Origin: a virus
Lineage: Duplodnaviria > Heunggongvirae > Uroviricota > Caudoviricetes
Direction: 5' to 3' (one strand)
Virus record (IMG/VR): IMGVR_UViG_2537561928_000018
DNA: 9,093 nt
Shown: positions 1-9,043 of the stretch, one piece after another
Layout of the letters: each line of letters opens with the position of its first letter
Position numbering within the stretch: the stretch's first letter is position 1
The notes under the pieces: model-generated
Databases searched by the model: none
What the model was told of the DNA's origin: nothing
The model's input: the letters and a program-made list of their open reading frames with translations, nothing else
Translations under genes and position numbers: made by a program

Positions 1-540
1 AAAAATACTTAACAGAACTACCAAGAAGAGAGGGAACGATAAGACCGGAGGTAGTGACCTTGTTAGACAGGCTGTTTCAAAGCTCTTAAGAATCTGTTAA
101 GTAAGGTCATGTGAACAATCTTACCATTTTGTCAATGCTTTTGTCTTTGACCTAAATCAATAAAATGTATCGTTTGATGTGCTTTTAAACAAAGTAGCTA
201 AAAAATCTTTTTAGAGGGGCGCTTCGCTTGGGGTCACTATGTTCTTTCTCTCCCGTTAAGAGGGGAGTTACAGGGCATTTCAAAGCCCTGATAAGGTAAG
301 CCCGATGATAACAGAAACAGAGGGCAAAACCACTTATCAACACTGTGAACGAATAACGTAAAGGGCTGGTTAAGAAAGTCGGTTTAGGGATTGGTAGATG
401 ATTCGGATGAAGCATCCTCATAACAATACCAATTAGAAGGGAGCTTCCCTCTCTGGGGTTATCGCTCTTCTCCCGCTTAGTGGATAGCTAAGAAGGCTTG
501 AAGTCATCTGTGAAGGTGCTGAACAGCTACTATATTGGGT

Positions 541-799: not shown

Positions 800-1012
800 T
801 TAACGGGGGTCCGTGTGGTCATTATCCTTAAGGTCAAGCGTCCATGTACGACCGAACAGTTTAAAGACAACAAGCACTCTGACGAGGACGTAGCGGAGTA
901 ACAGACCTGCAATCAGCCCGATACCTCCACCAGCCCATACATCAGGTGACCCCAGTTCAGGAGGGAGATTTACCATTAAATTTCCTGTGTGCAATGCAAT
1001 ACCATGTGACAT
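800..1012 (-). CDS. Hypothetical small protein with one hydrophobic segment (70 aa; alternative start at internal Met, codon 977-979, gives 58 aa)
   Basis: ORF track; hydrophobic stretch AGGGIGLIAGLLLRYVLVRVLVV; no clear SD before ATG at 1012, weak AGGA before the internal ATG; region looks GC-richer than its surroundings. Could be spurious. Confidence 0.3.
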   Translation of the reverse strand: MSHGIALHTGNLMVNLPPELGSPDVWAGGGIGLIAGLLLRYVLVRVLVVFKLFGRTWTLDLKDNDHTDPR

Positions 1013-1140
1013 ACATAGTTGATTCGGTTAGTTGGGCTTGTACCAACCCCTATCGAATAAACCTCATAGCCACGCCTTTATATTTTACTCTCCCCATAGA
1101 ACCATTATACCACAGATGTTAATAAAATGTTAAAAAATAC

Positions 1141-1179
1141 TTGACATTAGTCTTTGAAAATGCTAGTATTGTATATATA
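1141..1179 (+). promoter_or_regulatory. Sigma70-type promoter P1: TTGACA, 17-bp spacer, extended -10 TGcTAGTAT, then TGTATATATA box
   Basis: Seen in sequence: ttgaca at 1141-1146, tgc-tagtat at 1161-1169, tgtatatata at 1170-1179; located about 50 bp upstream of the 1221 start codon. Confidence 0.55.
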
Positions 1180-1220
1180 AGTTAACAGAATAATAACATC
1201 TTATGAGGGTCGGAACATGA

Positions 1221-1778
1221 ATGAGAGACGCAGAATTTAGAGCGATGCTTCAGGCATCGAGACAACGTAACAAGCACAACTCCTACGCTTACACAAACAA
1301 CCCAACCAGCTACGAACTACCCAAGCTCACCAAGAAAGAACGCAAAGGCATTGACGAAGTAATTCGTAGCATTACGCCACGAGACAGATTTATGCCAACC
1401 AGAAAGAGCACCCAGAACACTATTAAAAATTATCTGGCTAACTTTGATTCTTACGAGCAACTACCAAGTAAGCTTGATGATATTTTCATTGGATTCTGTA
1501 GAAGTGAAGGCCACCCGAAATACAACAAAAAACTATTTTATCTTCTAAAGAATCTTGACGAAATTAACGCAGCCAGCGTGACAAATTATCTTCAAAGACA
1601 AGCAACCAGACTTAGCCATGAATTACCAAGCGATAAATATTGCGCTTTGCTTGCTGTAATGTGTGCAAAGCTAATTGGTATTGTTGAACATCATATTGCC
1701 GTTGGGAATATTGAGCCAATGGAAAACGAGCAACCAGATTTCGAGTTTGACCCGTATTTAGTTACAGAGGAATTTTAA
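1221..1778 (+). CDS. Hypothetical protein, 185 aa, acidic C-terminal tail (first gene of coupled operon)
   Basis: ORF track; ATG start; GAGGG about 11 nt upstream; stop TAA directly abuts the next start codon (TAAATG). No family recognised. Confidence 0.7.
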   Translation: MRDAEFRAMLQASRQRNKHNSYAYTNNPTSYELPKLTKKERKGIDEVIRSITPRDRFMPTRKSTQNTIKNYLANFDSYEQLPSKLDDIFIGFCRSEGHPKYNKKLFYLLKNLDEINAASVTNYLQRQATRLSHELPSDKYCALLAVMCAKLIGIVEHHIAVGNIEPMENEQPDFEFDPYLVTEEF

Positions 1779-2057
1779 ATGAATAAACACACATTAACCC
1801 GTATTTCAGAGGAAGCTTTTAACGAGCTTACCAGAATTAAACGAGCTACTAACTTGCCTCATCAAACTGTAATGCAGCTTGCAATTGCTAAAGAGGTCAC
1901 TGAGTCGGATTTACTTAAATATCCAGTCTCTAAAGGTCGTAAGCACATCCGAATTACTCAGGACGCTTTAGATACTTTGAAGGCACTTAACGGCTTTAAG
2001 ATTGATATTGCCCGTCTATTGAGTCTTAAGATTCACAAGTTAGCGATGGAGGTTTAA
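1779..2057 (+). CDS. Putative DNA-binding protein with two ribbon-helix-helix-like repeats, 92 aa
   Basis: ORF track; SD GAGGAA 6 nt upstream; pattern HTLTRI-SEEAFNELTRIKRAT-NLP-HQTVMQLAIAK and a second HIRIT-QDALDTLKALNG-IDIARLLSLKIHK resemble strand-helix-helix units. Fold assignment is inference only. Confidence 0.6.
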   Translation: MNKHTLTRISEEAFNELTRIKRATNLPHQTVMQLAIAKEVTESDLLKYPVSKGRKHIRITQDALDTLKALNGFKIDIARLLSLKIHKLAMEV

Positions 2058-2272
2058 TGCTATGCGTTACCTTTGAATACCACACGGATAAAATGATTCG
2101 CCACATCTCCGACCTCCTGATTAAGGGAAACGGATTCGGTGACATCCATAACTCAAAAGATATTTTCATTAAAGCCATTGGCCCAAATGAAGTACTGAAA
2201 ACAGCAGTTAAACCGGAATGGTTTGAGCGTCACAAGATTGAATTAGGTTATTGGGGTGAGGAGGTTTTATGA
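2057..2272 (+). CDS. Hypothetical protein, 71 aa
   Basis: ORF track; start overlaps upstream stop (TAATG); GGAGG 4 nt upstream; stop overlaps next start (ATGA). Confidence 0.6.
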   Translation: MLCVTFEYHTDKMIRHISDLLIKGNGFGDIHNSKDIFIKAIGPNEVLKTAVKPEWFERHKIELGYWGEEVL

Positions 2273-2556
2273 AACCTTGGCATGAAGATGTTAGACGATA
2301 TTTTACAGAACACCTTATCTATGATGAATCCAGTGATTCCCTGTGCTGGTCTGATGGAGAGTCAGTCACGATAAATACCGACGACTACGGCAACAAAACA
2401 TTTAATATAGGCCGATATACTTTCTACGTGAAATATGTTGTCTGGTTCCTTTATCATGGCTATCAATCCAACAAGCAAATTATCCATCGAAATGGTAACA
2501 GAGCCGATACCAGACCAAAAAATCTTATGCAAGTCCGAGACTTTAAGAGAAATTAG
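2269..2556 (+). CDS. Minimal HNH-family endonuclease, 95 aa
   Basis: ORF track; SD GGTGAGGAGG 4 nt upstream; C-terminal motif IIHRNGNRADTRPKNLMQV matches the H-x-x-G-N...N-L signature of phage-type HNH endonucleases, preceded by YVKYVVWFLYHG; recalled family pattern, not searched. Confidence 0.7.
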   Translation: MKPWHEDVRRYFTEHLIYDESSDSLCWSDGESVTINTDDYGNKTFNIGRYTFYVKYVVWFLYHGYQSNKQIIHRNGNRADTRPKNLMQVRDFKRN

Positions 2557-2711
2557 AAAAATAGCTTCTCAGGCGCTCTCAATCGCATTCTAACGCAAAA
2601 AACTATCTTATTTTAGGGTGGGTAATACCACTGTACAGGCTACCCCTGAAAAAGACTGTTTAGCTCGTTACAGAGCGATTGAGGAGGTCTGGTAAAAAGG
2701 AGATTTTAAAA

Positions 2712-3035
2712 ATGAACAATTACCCATTACAGATTTTCGTTGATAACGACACCGCTATGATGATTCAGGCTTTCACTGATGTAGGTGTTAGCATTGACTT
2801 TGACAGGCTGTTAAGGCTAATGGCTGATAACTCAGAAGTAATTGAAGACTTTATTCAGTCGGTGGAGTTTAACGAGCCTCGAATGATGCTACCAATTATA
2901 GACAGCAACATGAAAAGATTGGTTATCGAGCAAACGAACAAATACAGTATTAGCCCTGAAAGATATCTCAAGGCAGCTATAGCAATTTTGTACGCTGACA
3001 ATATTTTGGTGACGGATTCGAAGGTGGTGCATTAA
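2712..3035 (+). CDS. Hypothetical acidic protein, 107 aa from the ATG (ORF track begins at TTG 2679)
   Basis: ATG at 2712 has SD AAGGAG 9 nt upstream, preferred over the TTG at 2679 which overlaps a GAGGAGG; D/E-rich; no family recognised. Confidence 0.65.
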   Translation: MNNYPLQIFVDNDTAMMIQAFTDVGVSIDFDRLLRLMADNSEVIEDFIQSVEFNEPRMMLPIIDSNMKRLVIEQTNKYSISPERYLKAAIAILYADNILVTDSKVVH

Positions 3036-3100
3036 TGGAATTGGTGATTATCTGTTTTGTATTGATTGGTATGATTGCAGGTGCATCTATTAAAGTATAA
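3035..3100 (+). CDS. 21-aa hydrophobic micropeptide MELVIICFVLIGMIAGASIKV (not in ORF track)
   Basis: Seen in sequence: ATG overlaps upstream TAA (TAATG); strong SD AAGGTGG 5 nt upstream inside the end of the preceding gene; one predicted transmembrane-length hydrophobic stretch; stop TAA at 3098-3100. Confidence 0.4.
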   Translation: MELVIICFVLIGMIAGASIKV

Positions 3101-3125
3101 ATGTTACCAATCTGTTAAAAAGCTG

Positions 3126-3164
3126 TTGACAAATAACCTTGAGCATGACATAATTGTATATATA
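3126..3164 (+). promoter_or_regulatory. Sigma70-type promoter P2: TTGACA, 17-bp spacer, extended -10 TGaCATAAT, then TGTATATATA box
   Basis: Seen in sequence: ttgaca 3126-3131, tga-cataat 3146-3154, tgtatatata 3155-3164; same architecture as P1. Confidence 0.55.
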
Positions 3165-3243
3165 GGGAGAGCAATTCTCCTTGAATTAAAATATTAATCG
3201 TCTCTACATCGATGATAACTATATTCTGAGTTGGAAAGGTGCA

Positions 3244-3420
3244 ATGCTTTTCGTCATGGCCTTTCAGGTTAGTCTGAGAGGCTATCTCAAAAAGTGCTTA
3301 ATCATTCATTCATTGAACCCTTTACAGCTTTGCCCTAATCATGAGTTAGGGCGTTTCTTTAAGAGTTTTCAAACAGAACTTTTAAAGAAAGTTTTTCCTG
3401 AAACTTCGTTAACGTTATAA
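3244..3420 (+). CDS. Candidate small ORF, 58 aa, basic (alternatively an untranslated leader or small RNA)
   Basis: ATG at 3244 with stop TAA at 3418-3420; lies between P2 and a hairpin at 3432-3473; SD weak (AAAGGTG only 2 nt from the ATG); just below the ORF-track length cutoff. Coding status uncertain. Confidence 0.25.
   Translation: MLFVMAFQVSLRGYLKKCLIIHSLNPLQLCPNHELGRFFKSFQTELLKKVFPETSLTL
3332..3360 (+). terminator. Terminator-like hairpin gccctaa / ttagggc with tail gtttcttt
   Basis: 7-bp perfect stem, 7-nt loop, T-rich tail; located inside the candidate 58-aa ORF or leader, so it may be an attenuator rather than a gene-end terminator. Confidence 0.35.
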
Positions 3421-3573: not shown

Positions 3574-4284
3574 ATGACAAATGATATTTACATTAATGGC
3601 AGAAAGGTTGATAGCTTCGGTGACTGGTCGCCACAGACTGAACATCCAGCTATCACTATTCAGCGTAAAGAACACGATGAAAGAATTAAGCTTGAGCAAT
3701 CGTTAAAGATGTCACCAAAGGTAATTTCCTTTGTGTCTCCTGAGCCTCAAGAAATGCCAGATATCTGCAAAAGTGAAGCACTATTTAATCTTGAGCGTGA
3801 ATATTACCCACAGTTAAAAGCACAGCGTATTAAACTTGATGACGCTTACAGCAAAGTTACCCTGATGCAATCAGCTATTGAGCCGTCAGAATTTGAGATT
3901 CAGGATGAATTGTCACAGAAACCATTTGTCTATTACCAATACGAAGATAATGATGGTTTTGGTACTTTTCCTGAGAATATCCCAGACGTGATTAATAATC
4001 TTCCTGACGGATATCGAATTGTGAAGATGGTTAAAGCTTCAAGGGGTGCTGGTCAATTTATTTATATGACTAATAAGAGCGATGAAGAACTCTGTGAACT
4101 TGCTAGACAGAACATCTTGGCATCACGTAACAAGCAACTTGAAAATGTTAAGTTGTATCTCTCAAGAGAGCTTCAGGCTATGAAAGAACTTGTTAGTGAA
4201 TATGAATCACAGAAGAAGATTGCTATGCAAGCCGATATTGAGCAGTTAATGAAGATTTCTCAGAAATATGCAAAGGCTATTTGA
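3574..4284 (+). CDS. Hypothetical protein, 236 aa
   Basis: ORF track; SD AGAGGAAA 5 nt upstream of ATG; predicted helical, charged C-terminal third; no family recognised. Confidence 0.75.
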   Translation: MTNDIYINGRKVDSFGDWSPQTEHPAITIQRKEHDERIKLEQSLKMSPKVISFVSPEPQEMPDICKSEALFNLEREYYPQLKAQRIKLDDAYSKVTLMQSAIEPSEFEIQDELSQKPFVYYQYEDNDGFGTFPENIPDVINNLPDGYRIVKMVKASRGAGQFIYMTNKSDEELCELARQNILASRNKQLENVKLYLSRELQAMKELVSEYESQKKIAMQADIEQLMKISQKYAKAI

Positions 4285-4292
4285 GGTGATTA

Positions 4293-4601
4293 ATGAATGA
4301 TTTAACAGAACGCGATAAAAGAATTAAAGGGGTGATGGAACCTTTTGAAGATAGGTTCAATGAAATTAAAACGACTCTTGGTGATATTCAGGAGGTCACT
4401 GAATATCTTATTGGTCGTATGGACGAAAAGCCTCTTGCCGAACTAAAGTGTGATGGTCGGGATGATTTAACGCGACTTCTTATCGAACTCAAGGATAAGA
4501 TAAATAAGCTTGATACTGTGTATTATCAAACTGGTCTTTCACTACGTTATGAAATTCAAAAGAATGAACGCGGTGTCGAGTGTATACACTACTTAGATTA
4601 A
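4293..4601 (+). CDS. Hypothetical protein, 102 aa, N-terminus MNDLTER
   Basis: ORF track; SD GAGG 6 nt upstream; N-terminus paralogous to the next gene. Confidence 0.7.
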   Translation: MNDLTERDKRIKGVMEPFEDRFNEIKTTLGDIQEVTEYLIGRMDEKPLAELKCDGRDDLTRLLIELKDKINKLDTVYYQTGLSLRYEIQKNERGVECIHYLD

Positions 4602-4626
4602 AATCGAATTAAAAAGGAGGTGGTGA

Positions 4627-4830
4627 ATGATTGATTTAACAGAACGCTATGAACTCATCAAGGCAATTAGTGAACGACTGAAAGAACAACCCAACAAACC
4701 AAAACGAATCAAATCATCCACCTCTAAGCAAAATAACAGAATCAGAAGAATCGCTAAATGGTGTCTTGATAAATTACCAAGTGATTGTCAGATTGTTGGT
4801 GAAGATGGCAATTATTATCTGGTTGGGTAA
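4627..4830 (+). CDS. Hypothetical basic protein, 67 aa, N-terminus MIDLTER
   Basis: ORF track; strong SD AAGGAGG 6 nt upstream; K/R-rich middle region. Confidence 0.65.
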   Translation: MIDLTERYELIKAISERLKEQPNKPKRIKSSTSKQNNRIRRIAKWCLDKLPSDCQIVGEDGNYYLVG

Positions 4831-4988: not shown

Positions 4989-7037
4989 ATGAGCAAATTT
5001 ACAGTTGATAGTTTTATCGTTGAATTAGGCTTCAGTGAAAACGTTGTTAAAGGCTTGCAAAGAGTTGAAAAGGCAGCTTTGCAGTCAGCACAAAGAATTG
5101 AAAAGAACCTAAATAAAGGTTTCAGGATTAATACAAAACAGCTTGATAGTAATTTGACAAGTTCTTTAGGGCAACTTGAAAGGAAGTTTAATAAGGCTTT
5201 TGACAAGATTGAACAGAGAGCAAGAAGCACAAAAGCTTTCCGTTTCACAAGTCAGGTTAATGACGCTATTAATCCTCCAAAACAACCAAGACAGCCACGA
5301 ATTAGCGGAAACAGAGCAATCACAGCAGCTTACTCAGCGAATATGAGCAAGTTAAAGGGCTTTGACCCTGTTTTGCAGAAATACATCAAATCTCAGTTTT
5401 ACGGGCTATCTGCTAAAGCTGGTCAGATGGATAATTCAAAATTCAATGAGAAGCTGGCTCAGTTAAATGCTTCAGTCAGAGAAGCAATTGCTAAAGCTAA
5501 AGGTCATACATCCACCAGCATTAACGGTGACAGAGCAGCTAATAGTCTTGATAGTTTGAGTTCAGCAGCAGTTAAAACAGCAGGTGCATTTATCAGCTTT
5601 CAGGCTGTACTATCCGCTTATCAGAAGATTATGGAAGTTGGCCTTCAACGTGCATCATCGGAAAGAAGTATTGATTTCGTATTCGGTGACCAAAGTACAC
5701 AGGTCAAAAAGTTCATTCAAGATTTAACTCAAATTACTGGTATGGACACAACCGAAACACAAGCACAGTTTGCTTCATTTGGTGCATCTGCAAAAAATAC
5801 GATGGGTCTTGAAGGCTCAGAGGAATTATTTAAAAACTTAACTGGATATGCCCGTTTAATGGGTCGTTCAGATGAGCAGATTCAAAGAGCATTAACCGCA
5901 GTATCGCAGATGGCTTCTAAGGGTCAGGTGATGGCTGAAGAGCTTAAGGGGCAACTATCTGAAGCTTTACCGGGTGCTACTCAGGCATTTGCAAAGGCTT
6001 TAGGTCTGACTGAAAAACAGCTTTTCGATAAGATGAAAAATGGTGATGTTAAAGCCTCTGATGCACTCCCTAAGTTTGCTAAAGAACTTGGTTCACAGAT
6101 TAATTCCAGAGGTGGCTGGAAAGCTATTCAGGACTCTACGCAGACGATGTTAGGGAACTTAAAGAATACTTGGAACAACTCACTAACGGATATCTTCAGA
6201 GGTTCTGAAAATGGTCTTCAAGATTTCACAAGAAGCTTAACAACGCTTTTAAATAGTCTTGGTGGGAGTGGTAAAACATTAGGTGAAAGTCTTGGTAATC
6301 TCATGACTTCTATGTCACACGGTGTCGATAACCTGACTGATATTAGTTACAGGGTAAGGGCGTTCTTTGACGAGGTGACATTGGCTTATCGTGGTTTAAC
6401 CGATGAACAAAAGAAAGTTGTTGATGCTTTAGGTTCTGGCTTGATTAATAGTTTAAAAGTCTTGGCTGGTGTTATTGCTGTAAATAAAGTTGTTGGTGTA
6501 ACCAGAAGTATTTACGGGCTTATGACTGCTATCACAAGATTAGGTCAGGTCGCTGATACTACAGCGGATAACGTGAATAGAAAGAACGGGAAACCATCAA
6601 GGTTTAATCTTGGGAATATGCTATTAGCTGGTAGTGCTATCTATGCAGGTTATGAAAGATTAGCCTCTACACCTGAACGAATGGAAGCACAAGCTAAATT
6701 ACCAGAGCTGGCTAAAGAGTCTGGACTTAAGCCAGTATTTACTATGGACGATGTGAAAGGTTGGTTTAATAGTGCAGCTATGAATCTTGCTAACTTCCAG
6801 CATCCAGAATTAATCACCATGAGACAAGATGCGGCATTAACGAATACGGATATCCAAAGCCTGAGAGATGAAATTAGTGCTTTGAGCAAACGTATTCAGG
6901 AGCCTGTGAAAGTTTCACTTGGTGGTGAAGTTGCCATTAAACCAGATGAAACCAGCTTTATGACCTTTAGCAGTAATATCTACGACCAATACGCAGAAGC
7001 TACGCTATTAAGTTCATCATTCCCAGAAGATGATTGA
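4989..7037 (+). CDS. Tape-measure-like protein, 682 aa
   Basis: ORF track; residues about 300-368 (ALTAVSQMASKGQVMAEELKGQLSEALPGATQAFAKALGLTEKQLFDKMKNGDVKASDALPKFAKELG) match my recollection of the conserved core of phage tail tape-measure proteins (SKG.V.AEEL..QL.E.LPGA...A.A.G pattern); A/Q/K/L/S-rich helical composition. The only SD (AGAGGTG) is about 11 nt upstream of the ATG. Confidence 0.6.
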   Translation: MSKFTVDSFIVELGFSENVVKGLQRVEKAALQSAQRIEKNLNKGFRINTKQLDSNLTSSLGQLERKFNKAFDKIEQRARSTKAFRFTSQVNDAINPPKQPRQPRISGNRAITAAYSANMSKLKGFDPVLQKYIKSQFYGLSAKAGQMDNSKFNEKLAQLNASVREAIAKAKGHTSTSINGDRAANSLDSLSSAAVKTAGAFISFQAVLSAYQKIMEVGLQRASSERSIDFVFGDQSTQVKKFIQDLTQITGMDTTETQAQFASFGASAKNTMGLEGSEELFKNLTGYARLMGRSDEQIQRALTAVSQMASKGQVMAEELKGQLSEALPGATQAFAKALGLTEKQLFDKMKNGDVKASDALPKFAKELGSQINSRGGWKAIQDSTQTMLGNLKNTWNNSLTDIFRGSENGLQDFTRSLTTLLNSLGGSGKTLGESLGNLMTSMSHGVDNLTDISYRVRAFFDEVTLAYRGLTDEQKKVVDALGSGLINSLKVLAGVIAVNKVVGVTRSIYGLMTAITRLGQVADTTADNVNRKNGKPSRFNLGNMLLAGSAIYAGYERLASTPERMEAQAKLPELAKESGLKPVFTMDDVKGWFNSAAMNLANFQHPELITMRQDAALTNTDIQSLRDEISALSKRIQEPVKVSLGGEVAIKPDETSFMTFSSNIYDQYAEATLLSSSFPEDD

Positions 7038-7194: not shown

Positions 7195-7968
7195 ATGATT
7201 TACTCTAACCAAATCAAATATAGTGGCAAAGATGGCATCTATTTCCACTTAAGAGATAATGTAGATGCCTTCTTAACCTTATCAGCAACTGAAAACATGG
7301 AATTTGACAGCCCTATGCAGGTAACTACACAGAACATGCAATCAGGGCAAACCGTCACAGATAATGTGCAAAGAGCACCCAGAACAATCACTATTAGTGG
7401 TGTCGTTGTAGTTGGCTATGAAGGAAGTTTATTATTAACTCGTCAGGGTCAATTAGTAGAAAACTTCATTGACACTCTCGAAAGCTGGCGTGACCAGAAG
7501 CAAATTATTTCGGTCATCTGTAAAGACGGTATCAAGATTGATGACTCCATTATCACGAGTTTTAAAGCCTCTAAAGATGTTGGAATTTCAAACGGCTTAA
7601 GAATCCAATTAACTTTTCAGGAAATTAACTTTAAAGCTATTGTGGGTCAGACTGATATCTCGGCTGCGACCGGAAGGACTTCTACCACAAGTGATGGTGG
7701 TGCTACCAGTAAAAAGAATACTGGTAATACTACAACAAGTCTAGGTAATGGTATGTTGCTGTGTCAGGAGCTATATAATCGCTCTACGAGTGAACTTTCT
7801 AATGAGCAACTTCAAGCCCGTATCAATTGTGGTAGAAGTGTCAAAGTTGAGAATGGAAAAAGCACCTTCTCAGATGCCGCTAATGAGCAAGCTTCAAAGG
7901 CGCTTAATAATGCTGGTACAGGTAATGTTTTGAAGAGGCTTTCTGTGAATCCTAACAAGCGCTACTGA
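7195..7968 (+). CDS. Hypothetical protein, 258 aa from the ATG (ORF track begins at TTG 7174); possibly tail-associated by position only
   Basis: ATG at 7195 has SD AAGGAG 6 nt upstream, and the TTG at 7174 would overlap it; contains an S/T/G-rich linker ([28 protein letters not shown]) between two regions; no family recognised. Confidence 0.7.
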
Positions 7969-7982
7969 CGATAGAATCTCAA

Positions 7983-8678
7983 CTATATGATAACCTCATC
8001 AACATCTATTAAACCCCTCTCAGTGACTTCAGAAAGCGACTGTATAGCCTCTGTAACGTCCTCTGAGGGGTTTTCTGTTATTGGTAAGGTGATTGCTCTA
8101 CCGTTGTGAAAAGTTACTTTACAGCGACGTTTAGCAGTATTTAAAACGACCTCTTTAACAGCACTTTTGATTATCAGTTGTGCTTCAATCCTTCCCGCCT
8201 TTGTAGTCAAGTCACAATCAGACAAAGAGCCTGTATCGATAGACTTAAGCCGCTGTGTCTCCTTCTCGATATCCGCATCAACCTGTGATAGCTCACCTTT
8301 TAACTGTTTTAGTTTGCTGGTAATAGCGGACAAGTCTTCAATTTCAAGTGATAGCTGTACCAGCTTTTCAATATTGTTTGAGATGTGTTCACGGTGTAGC
8401 TTCAGTGTGTCTATGGTATTCGTCGTATCGCTATCAAATCGGTCAAGACGAGATAGCAGGGTAAGTAATGTACCATCGGTTTGCTTACGTGAAAGTCCTT
8501 TAGCACTACAACGGTTTTCATTACGAAGGGGACAACGATAAATCCCGTTTCTTGTATTGCTAAAGCCTGTGATAATCAGAGCATGACCACATTCAGAACA
8601 ACGGATAACACCTTTAAAGAGATTCACACTCAATGGTTTATCTGAAGCAGGTTTTCGACCGTAACGAGAATGTGATAG
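7983..8678 (-). pseudogene. Large serine recombinase, 3' fragment (zinc-ribbon plus coiled-coil region); 5' catalytic part displaced by the IS3 insertion
   Basis: Minus-strand frame is open from the IS3 boundary with no credible start (track start at 8633 is a TTG); Cys pattern RCSECGH...YRCPLRNENRC followed by a long heptad-like coiled coil is typical of the C-terminal region of large serine integrases; about 230 aa is too short for a complete enzyme. Confidence 0.7.
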
Positions 8679-8743
8679 TGATCTTACCCAGCAATAGTGG
8701 ACACGCGGCTAAGTGAGTAAACTCTCAGTCAGAGGTGACTCAC

Positions 8744-9043
8744 ATGACAAAAACAGTATCAACCAGTAAAAAACCCCGTAAACAGCATTCGCCTGAATTT
8801 CGCAGTGAAGCCCTGAAGCTTGCTGAACGCATCGGTGTTACTGCCGCAGCCCGTGAACTCAGCCTGTATGAATCACAACTCTACAACTGGCGCAGTAAAC
8901 AGCAAAATCAGCAGACGTCTTCTGAACGTGAACTGGAGATGTCTACCGAGATTGCACGTCTCAAACGCCAGCTGGCAGAACGGGATGAAGAGCTGGCTAT
9001 CCTCCAAAAGGCCGCGACATACTTCGCGAAGCGCCTGAAATGA
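8744..9043 (+). CDS. insE: IS3 OrfA (transposase N-terminal / regulatory protein), 99 aa from the ATG
   Basis: Translation MTKTVSTSKKPRKQHSPEFRSEALKLAERIGVTAAARELSLYESQLYNWRSKQQ... is the IS3 OrfA sequence as I recall it; the track start at 8735 is an upstream GTG. Confidence 0.85.
   Translation: MTKTVSTSKKPRKQHSPEFRSEALKLAERIGVTAAARELSLYESQLYNWRSKQQNQQTSSERELEMSTEIARLKRQLAERDEELAILQKAATYFAKRLK

Follow-up and report, generated by a model that had tools for sequence, protein, structure and literature searches.

The phage-inducible chromosomal island-like element (PLE) of Vibrio cholerae is a satellite that is integrated by a large serine recombinase and exploits the lytic myovirus ICP1 (PMC6002521, PMC7145576), and it has been reported from V. 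cholerae only (PMC10085698). Here we describe an 11.5-kb island of enterobacterial chromosomes, part of which lies in a 9,093-nucleotide (nt) stretch of IMG/VR record IMGVR_UViG_2537561928_000018; this stretch is referred to as the window, and coordinates are window positions unless a locus (L number) is named. An initial annotation had singled out six open reading frames (ORF1 to ORF6) in the window as a candidate accessory system, an idea that is only partly right, and the operon is of more interest within its island context than by itself. What recurs, is under selection, and moves is the entire 11.5-kb island rather than the six genes. We read the operon as the conserved left-end early/regulatory operon of this island, itself likely a satellite of virulent Felix O1-like myoviruses (Felixounavirus and related Ounavirinae), and we hold this interpretation with about even confidence. 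A fuller proposal is put forward more tentatively: the islands would be undescribed but widespread Enterobacterales satellites of these phages that bring their own tape measure and baseplate proteins for helper-built tails and use the operon to sense or hijack the helper.

The locus in E. coli MS10495 lies between yecN/cmoA and yecD/aspS, where it splits yecE (DUF72) into two annotated fragments. Defined against the intact yecE of K-12, the insertion is 11.49 kb long (L008, 4085 to 15574), and it combines this small size with precise integration at yecE attL/attR and with an integrase of its own, a 507-amino-acid (aa) large serine recombinase. The attL and attR junctions overlap by 7 bp (AAAATCA), and the reconstructed attP has perfect 11-nt inverted arms (TAGTGTATTTA/TAAATACACTA), a dyad symmetry of the kind that would be expected of a serine recombinase site. 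The island begins with a 174-aa HNH-AP2 gene on the minus strand, followed by about 1.5 kb without annotated genes, the operon, and a second promoter (P2) with a long leader. Genes for 236-, 102-, and 67-aa proteins, a tape measure protein, a 257-aa Dit-like protein, and the recombinase complete it.

The tape measure protein (4989 to 7037, plus strand; 682 aa) matches Pfam TMP_3 (9e-18) and phrog_4036 (8.5e-86), and the Dit-like baseplate protein (7195 to 7968, plus strand) matches Pfam Dit_like (4.2e-20) and phrog_3721 (1.9e-137). Pfam, PHROGs, and locus gene content revealed no gene for a capsid, portal, terminase, sheath, or tube in the island, which therefore cannot make particles alone. 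Its nature as a phage satellite or phage-related chromosomal island of an undescribed type is suggested by its gene content, with a putative dependence on a helper.

The link to Felix O1-like phages lies in the tail genes. In searches of 50,697 phage records, the only window DNA to match any sequenced phage was a 544-nt segment of the Dit-like gene, which is about 95% identical to Felixounavirus. This gene is a mosaic: in a 60-nt sliding comparison with phage VpaE1, positions of about 7249 to 7668 are 88 to 97% identical, and the last 230 nt are about 45 to 60% identical. Correspondingly, the protein is 79 to 82% identical to its Felixounavirus counterpart, with an unrelated C-terminal part. 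The same Felixounavirus-like patch is found in a Salmonella island and in one IMG/VR island, and in two other islands the N-terminal part of the gene is about 65 to 75% identical and the C-terminal part about 45%. The closest phage homologs of the tape measure protein are also from Felixounavirus, at about 30% identity, and in most of these comparisons residues 1 to 510 alone align; the C-terminal 170 residues bear no relation to the VpaE1 protein and vary from island to island. The DNA similarity indicates that the baseplate gene of the island exchanged DNA with Felixounavirus recently, and recombination of this kind with virulent phages means that the island and the phages must meet in infected cells. 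Megablast and blastn of positions 1100 to 3200 gave no match in the phage records, nor did tblastn of the 236-, 102-, and 67-aa proteins. We also considered whether the window could be a fragment of a Felix O1-like phage, which was rejected given that only 544 nt of DNA match and that the locus lies in bacterial chromosomes between yecN and yecD.

The same mosaic structure could be read differently. The island might be a mobile antiphage element whose tape measure and Dit-like proteins are poison subunits that spoil the assembly of Felix O1-like tails, with an operon that only regulates and with some other route of spread. The N-terminal two-thirds of the Dit-like gene tracks phage DNA at 90 to 97% identity and its C-terminal part is foreign, and the similarity of the tape measure protein to its phage counterpart is confined to the first 510 residues; phage-like N-terminal parts joined to foreign C-terminal parts are the pattern expected of subunits that dock but misfunction. 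Defense by blocking tail assembly is known from at least one published account (PMC10884400). However, the pattern also fits a satellite that inserts its own proteins into the tails of a helper, and an 11.5-kb element with several recombinase types, sites, and host genera needs a transfer route, and it carries no conjugation genes. We consider poison subunits unlikely as the whole explanation, but this reading overlaps with satellite-mediated interference and is not mutually exclusive with that of a satellite.

Islands matching the operon are present in 476 of the 5426 complete E. coli genomes (about 9%) at 74 to 100% identity and in up to 3 places per genome; all 527 of these places are chromosomal, with none on plasmids. 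A shared gene order (ORF1, ORF2, variable small genes, ORF5, a micropeptide, the 236- and 67-aa genes, tape measure, Dit-like gene, and recombinase) extends to Salmonella enterica, Shigella sonnei, Escherichia albertii, Citrobacter, and three IMG/VR provirus contigs. The S. enterica island adjoins yciI/tonB, and its recombinase is only 34% identical. There are thus at least two recombinase types, several integration sites, and several genera. At a greater distance, Pectobacterium and Klebsiella aerogenes have ORF1-like genes (28 to 35% identity), again within islands that encode a large serine recombinase and a tape measure protein; ORF2, ORF3, and ORF5 are undetectable there. A Dit-like gene was seen only in Pectobacterium of these two, because the K. 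aerogenes locus ends inside the tape measure gene.

These places also bear on whether the island could be an integrative element mobilized by conjugation, in which ORF2 would be a TraY-like relaxosome accessory protein at an oriT within noncoding DNA and ORF4 or the HNH-AP2 protein would be the nicking enzyme. ORF2 does share a tandem fold with TraY, but the likeness is to the generic fold, at 6% sequence identity. Neither a relaxase nor a coupling protein nor a known oriT was found, every one of the E. coli places is chromosomal, and the partners of ORF1 across genera are phage tail genes, one of which has recombined with a virulent phage. We therefore regard this proposal as very unlikely.

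An exact attP junction was found once in a metagenome collection, at positions 2938 to 2967 of contig L022 (ERZ1090866 NODE_760; 11,473 bp). This contig has no identified host DNA, and its recombinase is 93% identical to that of the island. It appears from its sequence to be the excised form of a close relative. Both of its ends carry TTATCTA-type repeats, one of them running into a Nextera adapter. L022 also encodes a Dam-like methyltransferase, a small resolvase, and a 98-aa protein that is HNH-like by eye (with no Pfam match).

The apparent excised form argues against a decaying prophage remnant, in which the small ORFs would be functionless leftovers. Such decay would account for the insertion sequence (IS) that disrupts the recombinase here and for the IS insertions in other copies, for the resemblance of ORF4 to a truncated endonuclease, and for the large noncoding stretches. 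However, ORF1 to ORF5 are all under purifying selection, the same 11- to 12-kb architecture recurs with different sites and recombinases in several genera, and none of the phage records is a complete phage with these genes, so that a remnant is most improbable. Both the conjugative route and the dead remnant are unlikely explanations of an element that cannot make particles alone or conjugate, and yet is found at multiple sites in multiple genera, has an apparent excised form, and has exchanged DNA with virulent myoviruses. For this combination, a satellite is the simplest reading.

The six ORFs of the operon are all on the plus strand, at 1221 to 1778, 1779 to 2057, 2057 to 2272, 2269 to 2556, 2712 to 3035, and 3035 to 3100. 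In the initial annotation, every junction was taken to be abutting or overlapping. This is the case for four of them (TAA/ATG at 1778/1779, TAATG at 2057, ATGA at 2269, and TAATG at 3035) but fails between ORF4 and ORF5, which are separated by a noncoding spacer of 155 nt (2557 to 2711) and are therefore not coupled. A GGAG-type Shine-Dalgarno sequence lies 6 to 10 nt 5′ of each of ORF1 to ORF5, and ORF6 has a weaker AAGGTGG. No terminator-like site was seen on the plus strand from 1221 to 3331. Ratios of nonsynonymous to synonymous substitution rates (dN/dS) against diverged island copies are 0.15 to 0.25 for ORF1, 0.13 to 0.20 for ORF2, 0.07 to 0.18 for ORF3, 0.07 to 0.25 for ORF4, and, where substitutions suffice, 0.19 to 0.28 for ORF5. 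ORF1 to ORF5 are under purifying selection, and values of 0.07 to 0.28 indicate that they are real genes and not chance ORFs.

Mapping of eight enterobacterial island variants by tblastn showed that ORF1, ORF2, and ORF5 are syntenic in all eight and that ORF6 or an allelic counterpart occupies the same slot. The earlier statements that the operon sits on a mobile element, is unlike any described operon, and has genes that co-occur elsewhere are all confirmed. Nor do its genes appear to be ordinary phage early genes, as tblastn of ORF1, ORF2, ORF3, and ORF5 gave zero matches in the phage records. The proposal of accessory cargo did not hold up, since ORF1, ORF2, ORF5, and ORF6 lie inside such an island at every locus examined, and the operon is thus not swappable cargo but part of the island backbone.

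That proposal, in its strongest form, is a self-contained defense, counterdefense, or addiction module, for example one composed of a ribbon-helix-helix (RHH) antitoxin or regulator, an HNH effector, and a membrane peptide. Antitoxins are often RHH proteins and effectors are often HNH nucleases, ORF6 is similar to small hydrophobic type I toxins in size and composition, satellites and prophages often have defense hotspots, and the operon is unlike any described system. However, PADLOC, Pfam, and NCBIfam give no defense or toxin family; the sole match in PADLOC-DB is between ORF4 and a methyltransferase model (E = 0.014), which does not amount to a defense system, and no toxin family of a type II toxin-antitoxin pair is found among the neighbors of ORF2. 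ORF1, ORF2, ORF5, and ORF6 are a fixed backbone in every variant mapped rather than a swappable cassette, and the part that varies is the HNH gene, which shifts position, is missing from L014 and L016, and has Phe in place of His in L009, L011, and L015. Furthermore, ORF2 is a double RHH protein similar to TraY and AvtR, without the toxin-binding tail of an antitoxin. A defense or addiction module is accordingly quite improbable.

ORF1 (185 aa) is the hallmark protein of most islands of the family. It forms 1087 clusters at 90% identity, in Escherichia, Shigella, Salmonella, and Citrobacter, and has only 23 matches among 1.84 billion representatives. The exact protein is found in thousands of assemblies, every time in a bacterial chromosome. 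Nine of ten members of the family match phrog_23123, a family of unknown function, although the matches are weak, and still more remote relatives are hypothetical proteins in DNA metabolism regions of lytic phages, such as Salmonella phage 7-11. Apart from these matches and HNH_3 in ORF4, Pfam, PHROGs, NCBIfam, and PADLOC gave nothing for the operon proteins, and the ORF1, ORF2, and ORF5 families, searched as profiles against PDB sequences, gave nothing significant.

ORF2 (92 aa; basic, with an isoelectric point [pI] of 9.9) is a single-chain tandem RHH DNA-binding protein, consistent with the suggestion of a small tandem RHH-like protein in the initial annotation. Two beta-alpha-alpha units form a pseudodimer, without a C-terminal tail. 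It is a member of no Pfam family, matching DndE at E = 0.068, below the cutoff, and a VapB-type antitoxin at only E = 0.14.

ORF3 (71 aa) is a variable backbone gene. Homologs of 66 to 71 aa at 68 to 97% identity are present in L009, L011, L012, and L013, with a weak match (33%) in L015; tblastn mapping found none in L014 or L016. Neither ORF3 nor ORF5 has relatives detected outside the islands.

ORF4 (95 aa) had been called a minimal HNH nuclease. The HNH assignment stands, as the protein matches Pfam HNH_3 with 34.3 bits against a cutoff of 24.8 (E = 1.8e-8), but its status as a nuclease is doubtful. It consists of the HNH_3 domain only, stops 10 residues past the HNH motif, and has no AP2, NUMOD, or IENR module or other DNA-binding module. 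Its sequence is collinear with residues 5 to 100 of the 174-aa HNH-AP2 protein of the island. Of the H-N-N residues, the His and the final Asn are retained in the window allele, whereas Thr stands for the middle Asn, a residue absent from all ORF4 alleles; in the sister alleles of L009, L011, and L015, the catalytic His is replaced by Phe and the middle Asn by Cys. Judging from these residues, the sister alleles are probably inactive as nucleases, and the window allele, with its His kept, may have activity.

ORF4 is also the least constant component of the operon. Homologs in the Salmonella, S. sonnei, and E. albertii islands are about 40% identical, lie 5′ rather than 3′ of the ORF3 homolog, and score just under the Pfam HNH_3 cutoff, while L014 and L016 have neither ORF3 nor ORF4 but an HTH-containing (helix-turn-helix) gene in their place. 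These features suggest that ORF4 is probably a domesticated or decaying derivative of a homing endonuclease. As a truncated relative of the HNH-AP2 protein of the island, it is less likely to be a free nuclease than to have been domesticated for binding or regulation, and domestication fits better than an active homing enzyme because sister alleles without the catalytic His stay under purifying selection. We also considered ORF4 as a frameshifted HNH-AP2 pseudogene with its AP2 part in the 155-nt gap. AP2-like collinear similarity is present 3′ of ORF4 in another frame, but it is weak (E = 0.086 in a 561-nt search space) and belongs to a spacer that is kept in islands with no HNH gene before it. 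This candidate was rejected, given that the gap is nearly invariant where the HNH gene sits elsewhere.

ORF5 (107 aa) is a conserved backbone gene whose product is acidic, as first described, with a pI of 4.4. Homologs are present in all eight variants, with 76 to 95% identity among the six intact ones aligned, and searches of Pfam, PDB, and PADLOC gave no match. A sequence pattern was noticed that could have made ORF5 a further RHH protein, but this is unsupported by hhalign against ORF2 (probability, 0.7%). ORF6 (21 aa) is start-coupled to ORF5 by TAATG and, with a grand average of hydropathy (GRAVY) of 2.2, fits its earlier description as a membrane micropeptide. It is 95 to 100% identical in L009, L011, and L014. 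In L012, L013, L015, and L016, the slot holds a 25-aa allele (M-x-L-x-I-x-WTLLGL...GN..NRN) with synonymous and conservative changes. Two conserved hydrophobic allelic types therefore share one TAATG-coupled slot, one kept in three variants and the other varying conservatively in four, which indicates that the micropeptide gene is real.

The consensus-like promoter reported ahead of the operon is present. P1 (1141 to 1169, plus strand; TTGACA-17-TAGTAT with a TG extension, 10/12 matches) drives ORF1 to ORF6 and is kept in all eight variants. Back to back with it is a leftward promoter, P_L (1104 to 1133, minus strand; TTAACA-18-TATAAT, TG-extended, 11/12). The internal promoter P2 (3126 to 3154, plus strand; TTGACA-17-CATAAT, TG-extended, 11/12) stands ahead of the tail gene module. 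P_L and P2 are likewise kept in all variants.

A motif, TTAACA-N6-TAACA, is shared by these promoter regions. One copy (1117 to 1133, minus strand) lies just 5′ of the P1 −35 element and overlaps that of P_L, and an inverted copy (1182 to 1198, plus strand) lies in the initially transcribed region of P1 (+11 to +30), as a candidate operator. Another (3102 to 3118, minus strand) is at the same distance 5′ of the P2 −35 element as at P1 and overlaps a second copy, the pair spanning 3102 to 3129. A copy with one mismatch at 84 to 100 (minus strand) resembles those of the promoter regions. The 20.7-kb locus L008 contains five copies versus 0.57 expected, all in noncoding control regions of the island. 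In the copy 3′ of P1, the half-sites are constant among variants and the 6-nt spacer is variable. It is plausible from this arrangement that the motif is a common operator of P1 and P2, for which we infer that ORF2 is the best candidate binder.

The transcript from P2 has a leader of 420 nt before the 236-aa gene. A hairpin at its 5′ end, or a palindromic operator (3164 to 3182, plus strand), has arms that covary among variants (GGAGA/TCTCC, GGAAGAG/CTCTTCC, and AGAGAGA/TCTCTCT), and a terminator-like hairpin (3331 to 3353, plus strand; 3331 to 3363 with its T run) lies about 220 nt before the gene. The ORF4-ORF5 spacer on the plus strand is also predicted to form a long hairpin, with a fold of −50.2 kcal/mol (z = −2.65). 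It is nearly invariant: three islands with flanking genes that diverge by 5 to 40% share it at about 98% identity, and it is conserved in 6/8 variants; in L015 (E. albertii), the apical hairpin is swapped for another. Rfam gave no match to the spacer, to the rest of the window, or to the left noncoding part of the island, and a tRNA search found none.

Divergent from the operon and faced by P_L is an unannotated gene for a 58-aa single-pass membrane protein (800 to 976, minus strand; MVNLPPELGSPDVW...). It is kept in seven variants, of which that of Citrobacter is the most diverged (57% identity, with in-frame indels), and is annotated in one assembly only (L005) and not by RefSeq. Except for this gene, about 2.6 kb of the 11.5-kb island is without a credible ORF (L008 4086 to 5119 and 5645 to 7220). 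Two 48-nt repeats (536 to 583 and 633 to 680) are 83% identical, 97 nt apart, and each internally palindromic, and short TATCTTAACAAT repeats also occur within the ORF-poor DNA of the island. The repeats could represent an origin, a packaging site, or small RNA genes.

At the left island end, outside the window, is the 174-aa HNH-AP2 homing endonuclease gene (L008 5120 to 5644, minus strand), whose product is 37 to 41% identical to homing endonucleases of RB49-like (T4-like) and Klebsiella phages. Three variants, namely the S. sonnei island, one IMG/VR island, and the putatively excised L022, have a small resolvase with an HTH domain in its place. The 236-, 102-, and 67-aa genes (3574 to 4830, plus strand) are of unknown function and occupy the position of tail assembly genes, 5′ of the tape measure gene; every mapped variant has a homolog of the 236-aa gene, and a homolog of the 67-aa gene is missing only from the L015 contig, which is truncated. 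At the right end of the window, the C-terminal part of the large serine recombinase (7983 to 8679, minus strand; Pfam Zn_ribbon_recom at 7983 to 8633) is interrupted by an IS3-family element that starts at about 8680 (HTH_Tnp_1 transposase at 8735 to 9043); the gene is intact in L008. In other island copies, IS1, IS2, IS21, or IS5 is inserted at various points.

Taken as a satellite, the island could work as follows. The large serine recombinase would integrate it into yecE, where P1 and P2, as strong sigma-70 promoters, would be restrained or coordinated by an island DNA-binding protein, with ORF2 as the best candidate, at the shared motif. Upon helper infection, the products of ORF1 to ORF6 might take over the helper or organize the excision and replication of the island. 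P2 would then express the tape measure and baseplate proteins past the terminated leader, and these proteins would be built into helper-made tails.

Several observations weigh against this interpretation. Helper dependence, induction, replication, and packaging of the island are only predicted, and no replication initiator, primase, small terminase, or capsid-remodeling gene is recognizable in the island. ORF1, ORF3, and ORF5 match no family that would assign them a function, and the AlphaFold2 model of ORF1, all-helical, is unusable (pLDDT, 44.7). The motif copy at P1 also coincides with the −35 hexamer of P_L, and a role of ORF2 at the motif is inferred. The island copy in the window, with its recombinase broken by the IS element, is probably immobile. 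In the putatively excised contig L022, ORF1 is missing and a 137-aa acidic protein stands where it would lie, which makes even hallmark genes mosaic; the joined ends of this contig matched no spanning locus, and a closed circle is therefore only putative. IMG/VR holds no island sequence as a small stand-alone contig, and searches there with the attP junction and the invariant spacer returned only provirus-type contigs of 24 to 55 kb or nothing.

Felix O1-like phages are widely used in Salmonella typing, in biocontrol, and in phage therapy against E. coli. An island that about 9% of complete E. coli genomes carry, that also occurs in Salmonella, Shigella, and Citrobacter, and that trades DNA with these phages may ride on them or block them, either of which could affect therapy outcomes and gene flow. 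The operon offers tractable starting points, namely a regulator with a confident fold, a candidate operator that occurs repeatedly, an HNH protein in truncated form, and a pair of small membrane proteins. A literature search on Felixounavirus/Ounavirinae satellites, the yecE serine recombinase, tail-carrying satellites, and the protein accessions, with incomplete coverage, yielded no paper on the island.

Individual parts of the island have counterparts in known systems. TraY of the F plasmid, AvtR of an archaeal virus, and DndE are single-chain tandem RHH proteins like ORF2, although sequence identity is only 6 to 14%, and the relaxosome or dnd gene context of TraY and DndE is not found around ORF2. 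ORF4 resembles the free-standing HNH-AP2 homing endonucleases of T4-like and other phages in its HNH_3 domain and in its collinearity with the HNH-AP2 protein of the island, but it differs in lacking the AP2 domain and the middle Asn and, in the sister alleles, the catalytic His. The late promoter pR' of phage lambda has a short terminated leader (6S RNA, tR'). By analogy, P2 is near consensus, and after a structured 5′ end about 200 nt of untranslated leader run to a terminator-like hairpin before virion genes, whereas the island has no Q-like antiterminator gene or qut site and termination in the P2 leader is a prediction.

As a whole, the island is similar to PICI (phage-inducible chromosomal islands), cfPICI (capsid-forming PICI), and P4-like satellites: it falls in the same size class of about 10 to 15 kb, integrates at specific sites, has divergent promoters where its main operon begins, and encodes only part of a virion. 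However, those elements have tyrosine integrases, AlpA, a primase-replicase, and packaging or capsid modules, none of which was found in the island. cfPICI make capsids and steal tails, whereas the island makes two tail proteins and no capsid. Pfam, PHROGs, and NCBIfam gave no AlpA, primase-replicase, Sid/Psu/Delta, terS, capsid genes, PLE RepA, CapR, NixI, or LidI among the window proteins, and with no family marker genes the island is therefore not a member of the four described satellite families. In SatelliteFinder, tail genes are forbidden components of the PICI and cfPICI models (PMC10085698), so that these models, and thus current satellite finders, would exclude the island.

A further comparison is with PLE. 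No sequence homology to PLE genes was seen, and the island has no recognizable RepA-type initiator or capsid scaffold gene; it brings its own tape measure and Dit-like genes, and its dependence on a helper is putative. However, the two share a small size, a chromosomal location, and integration by a large serine recombinase (PMC6002521). Both consist mostly of small genes of unknown function, with small membrane proteins and endonuclease-derived proteins among the products, and the apparent excised form of a related island parallels the excision of PLE. Both are also tied to a virulent myovirus rather than to a temperate phage. If our interpretation is true, the island would be the second example, after PLE, of a satellite of a strictly virulent myovirus and the first known satellite to bring proteins of the tail interior rather than capsid functions.

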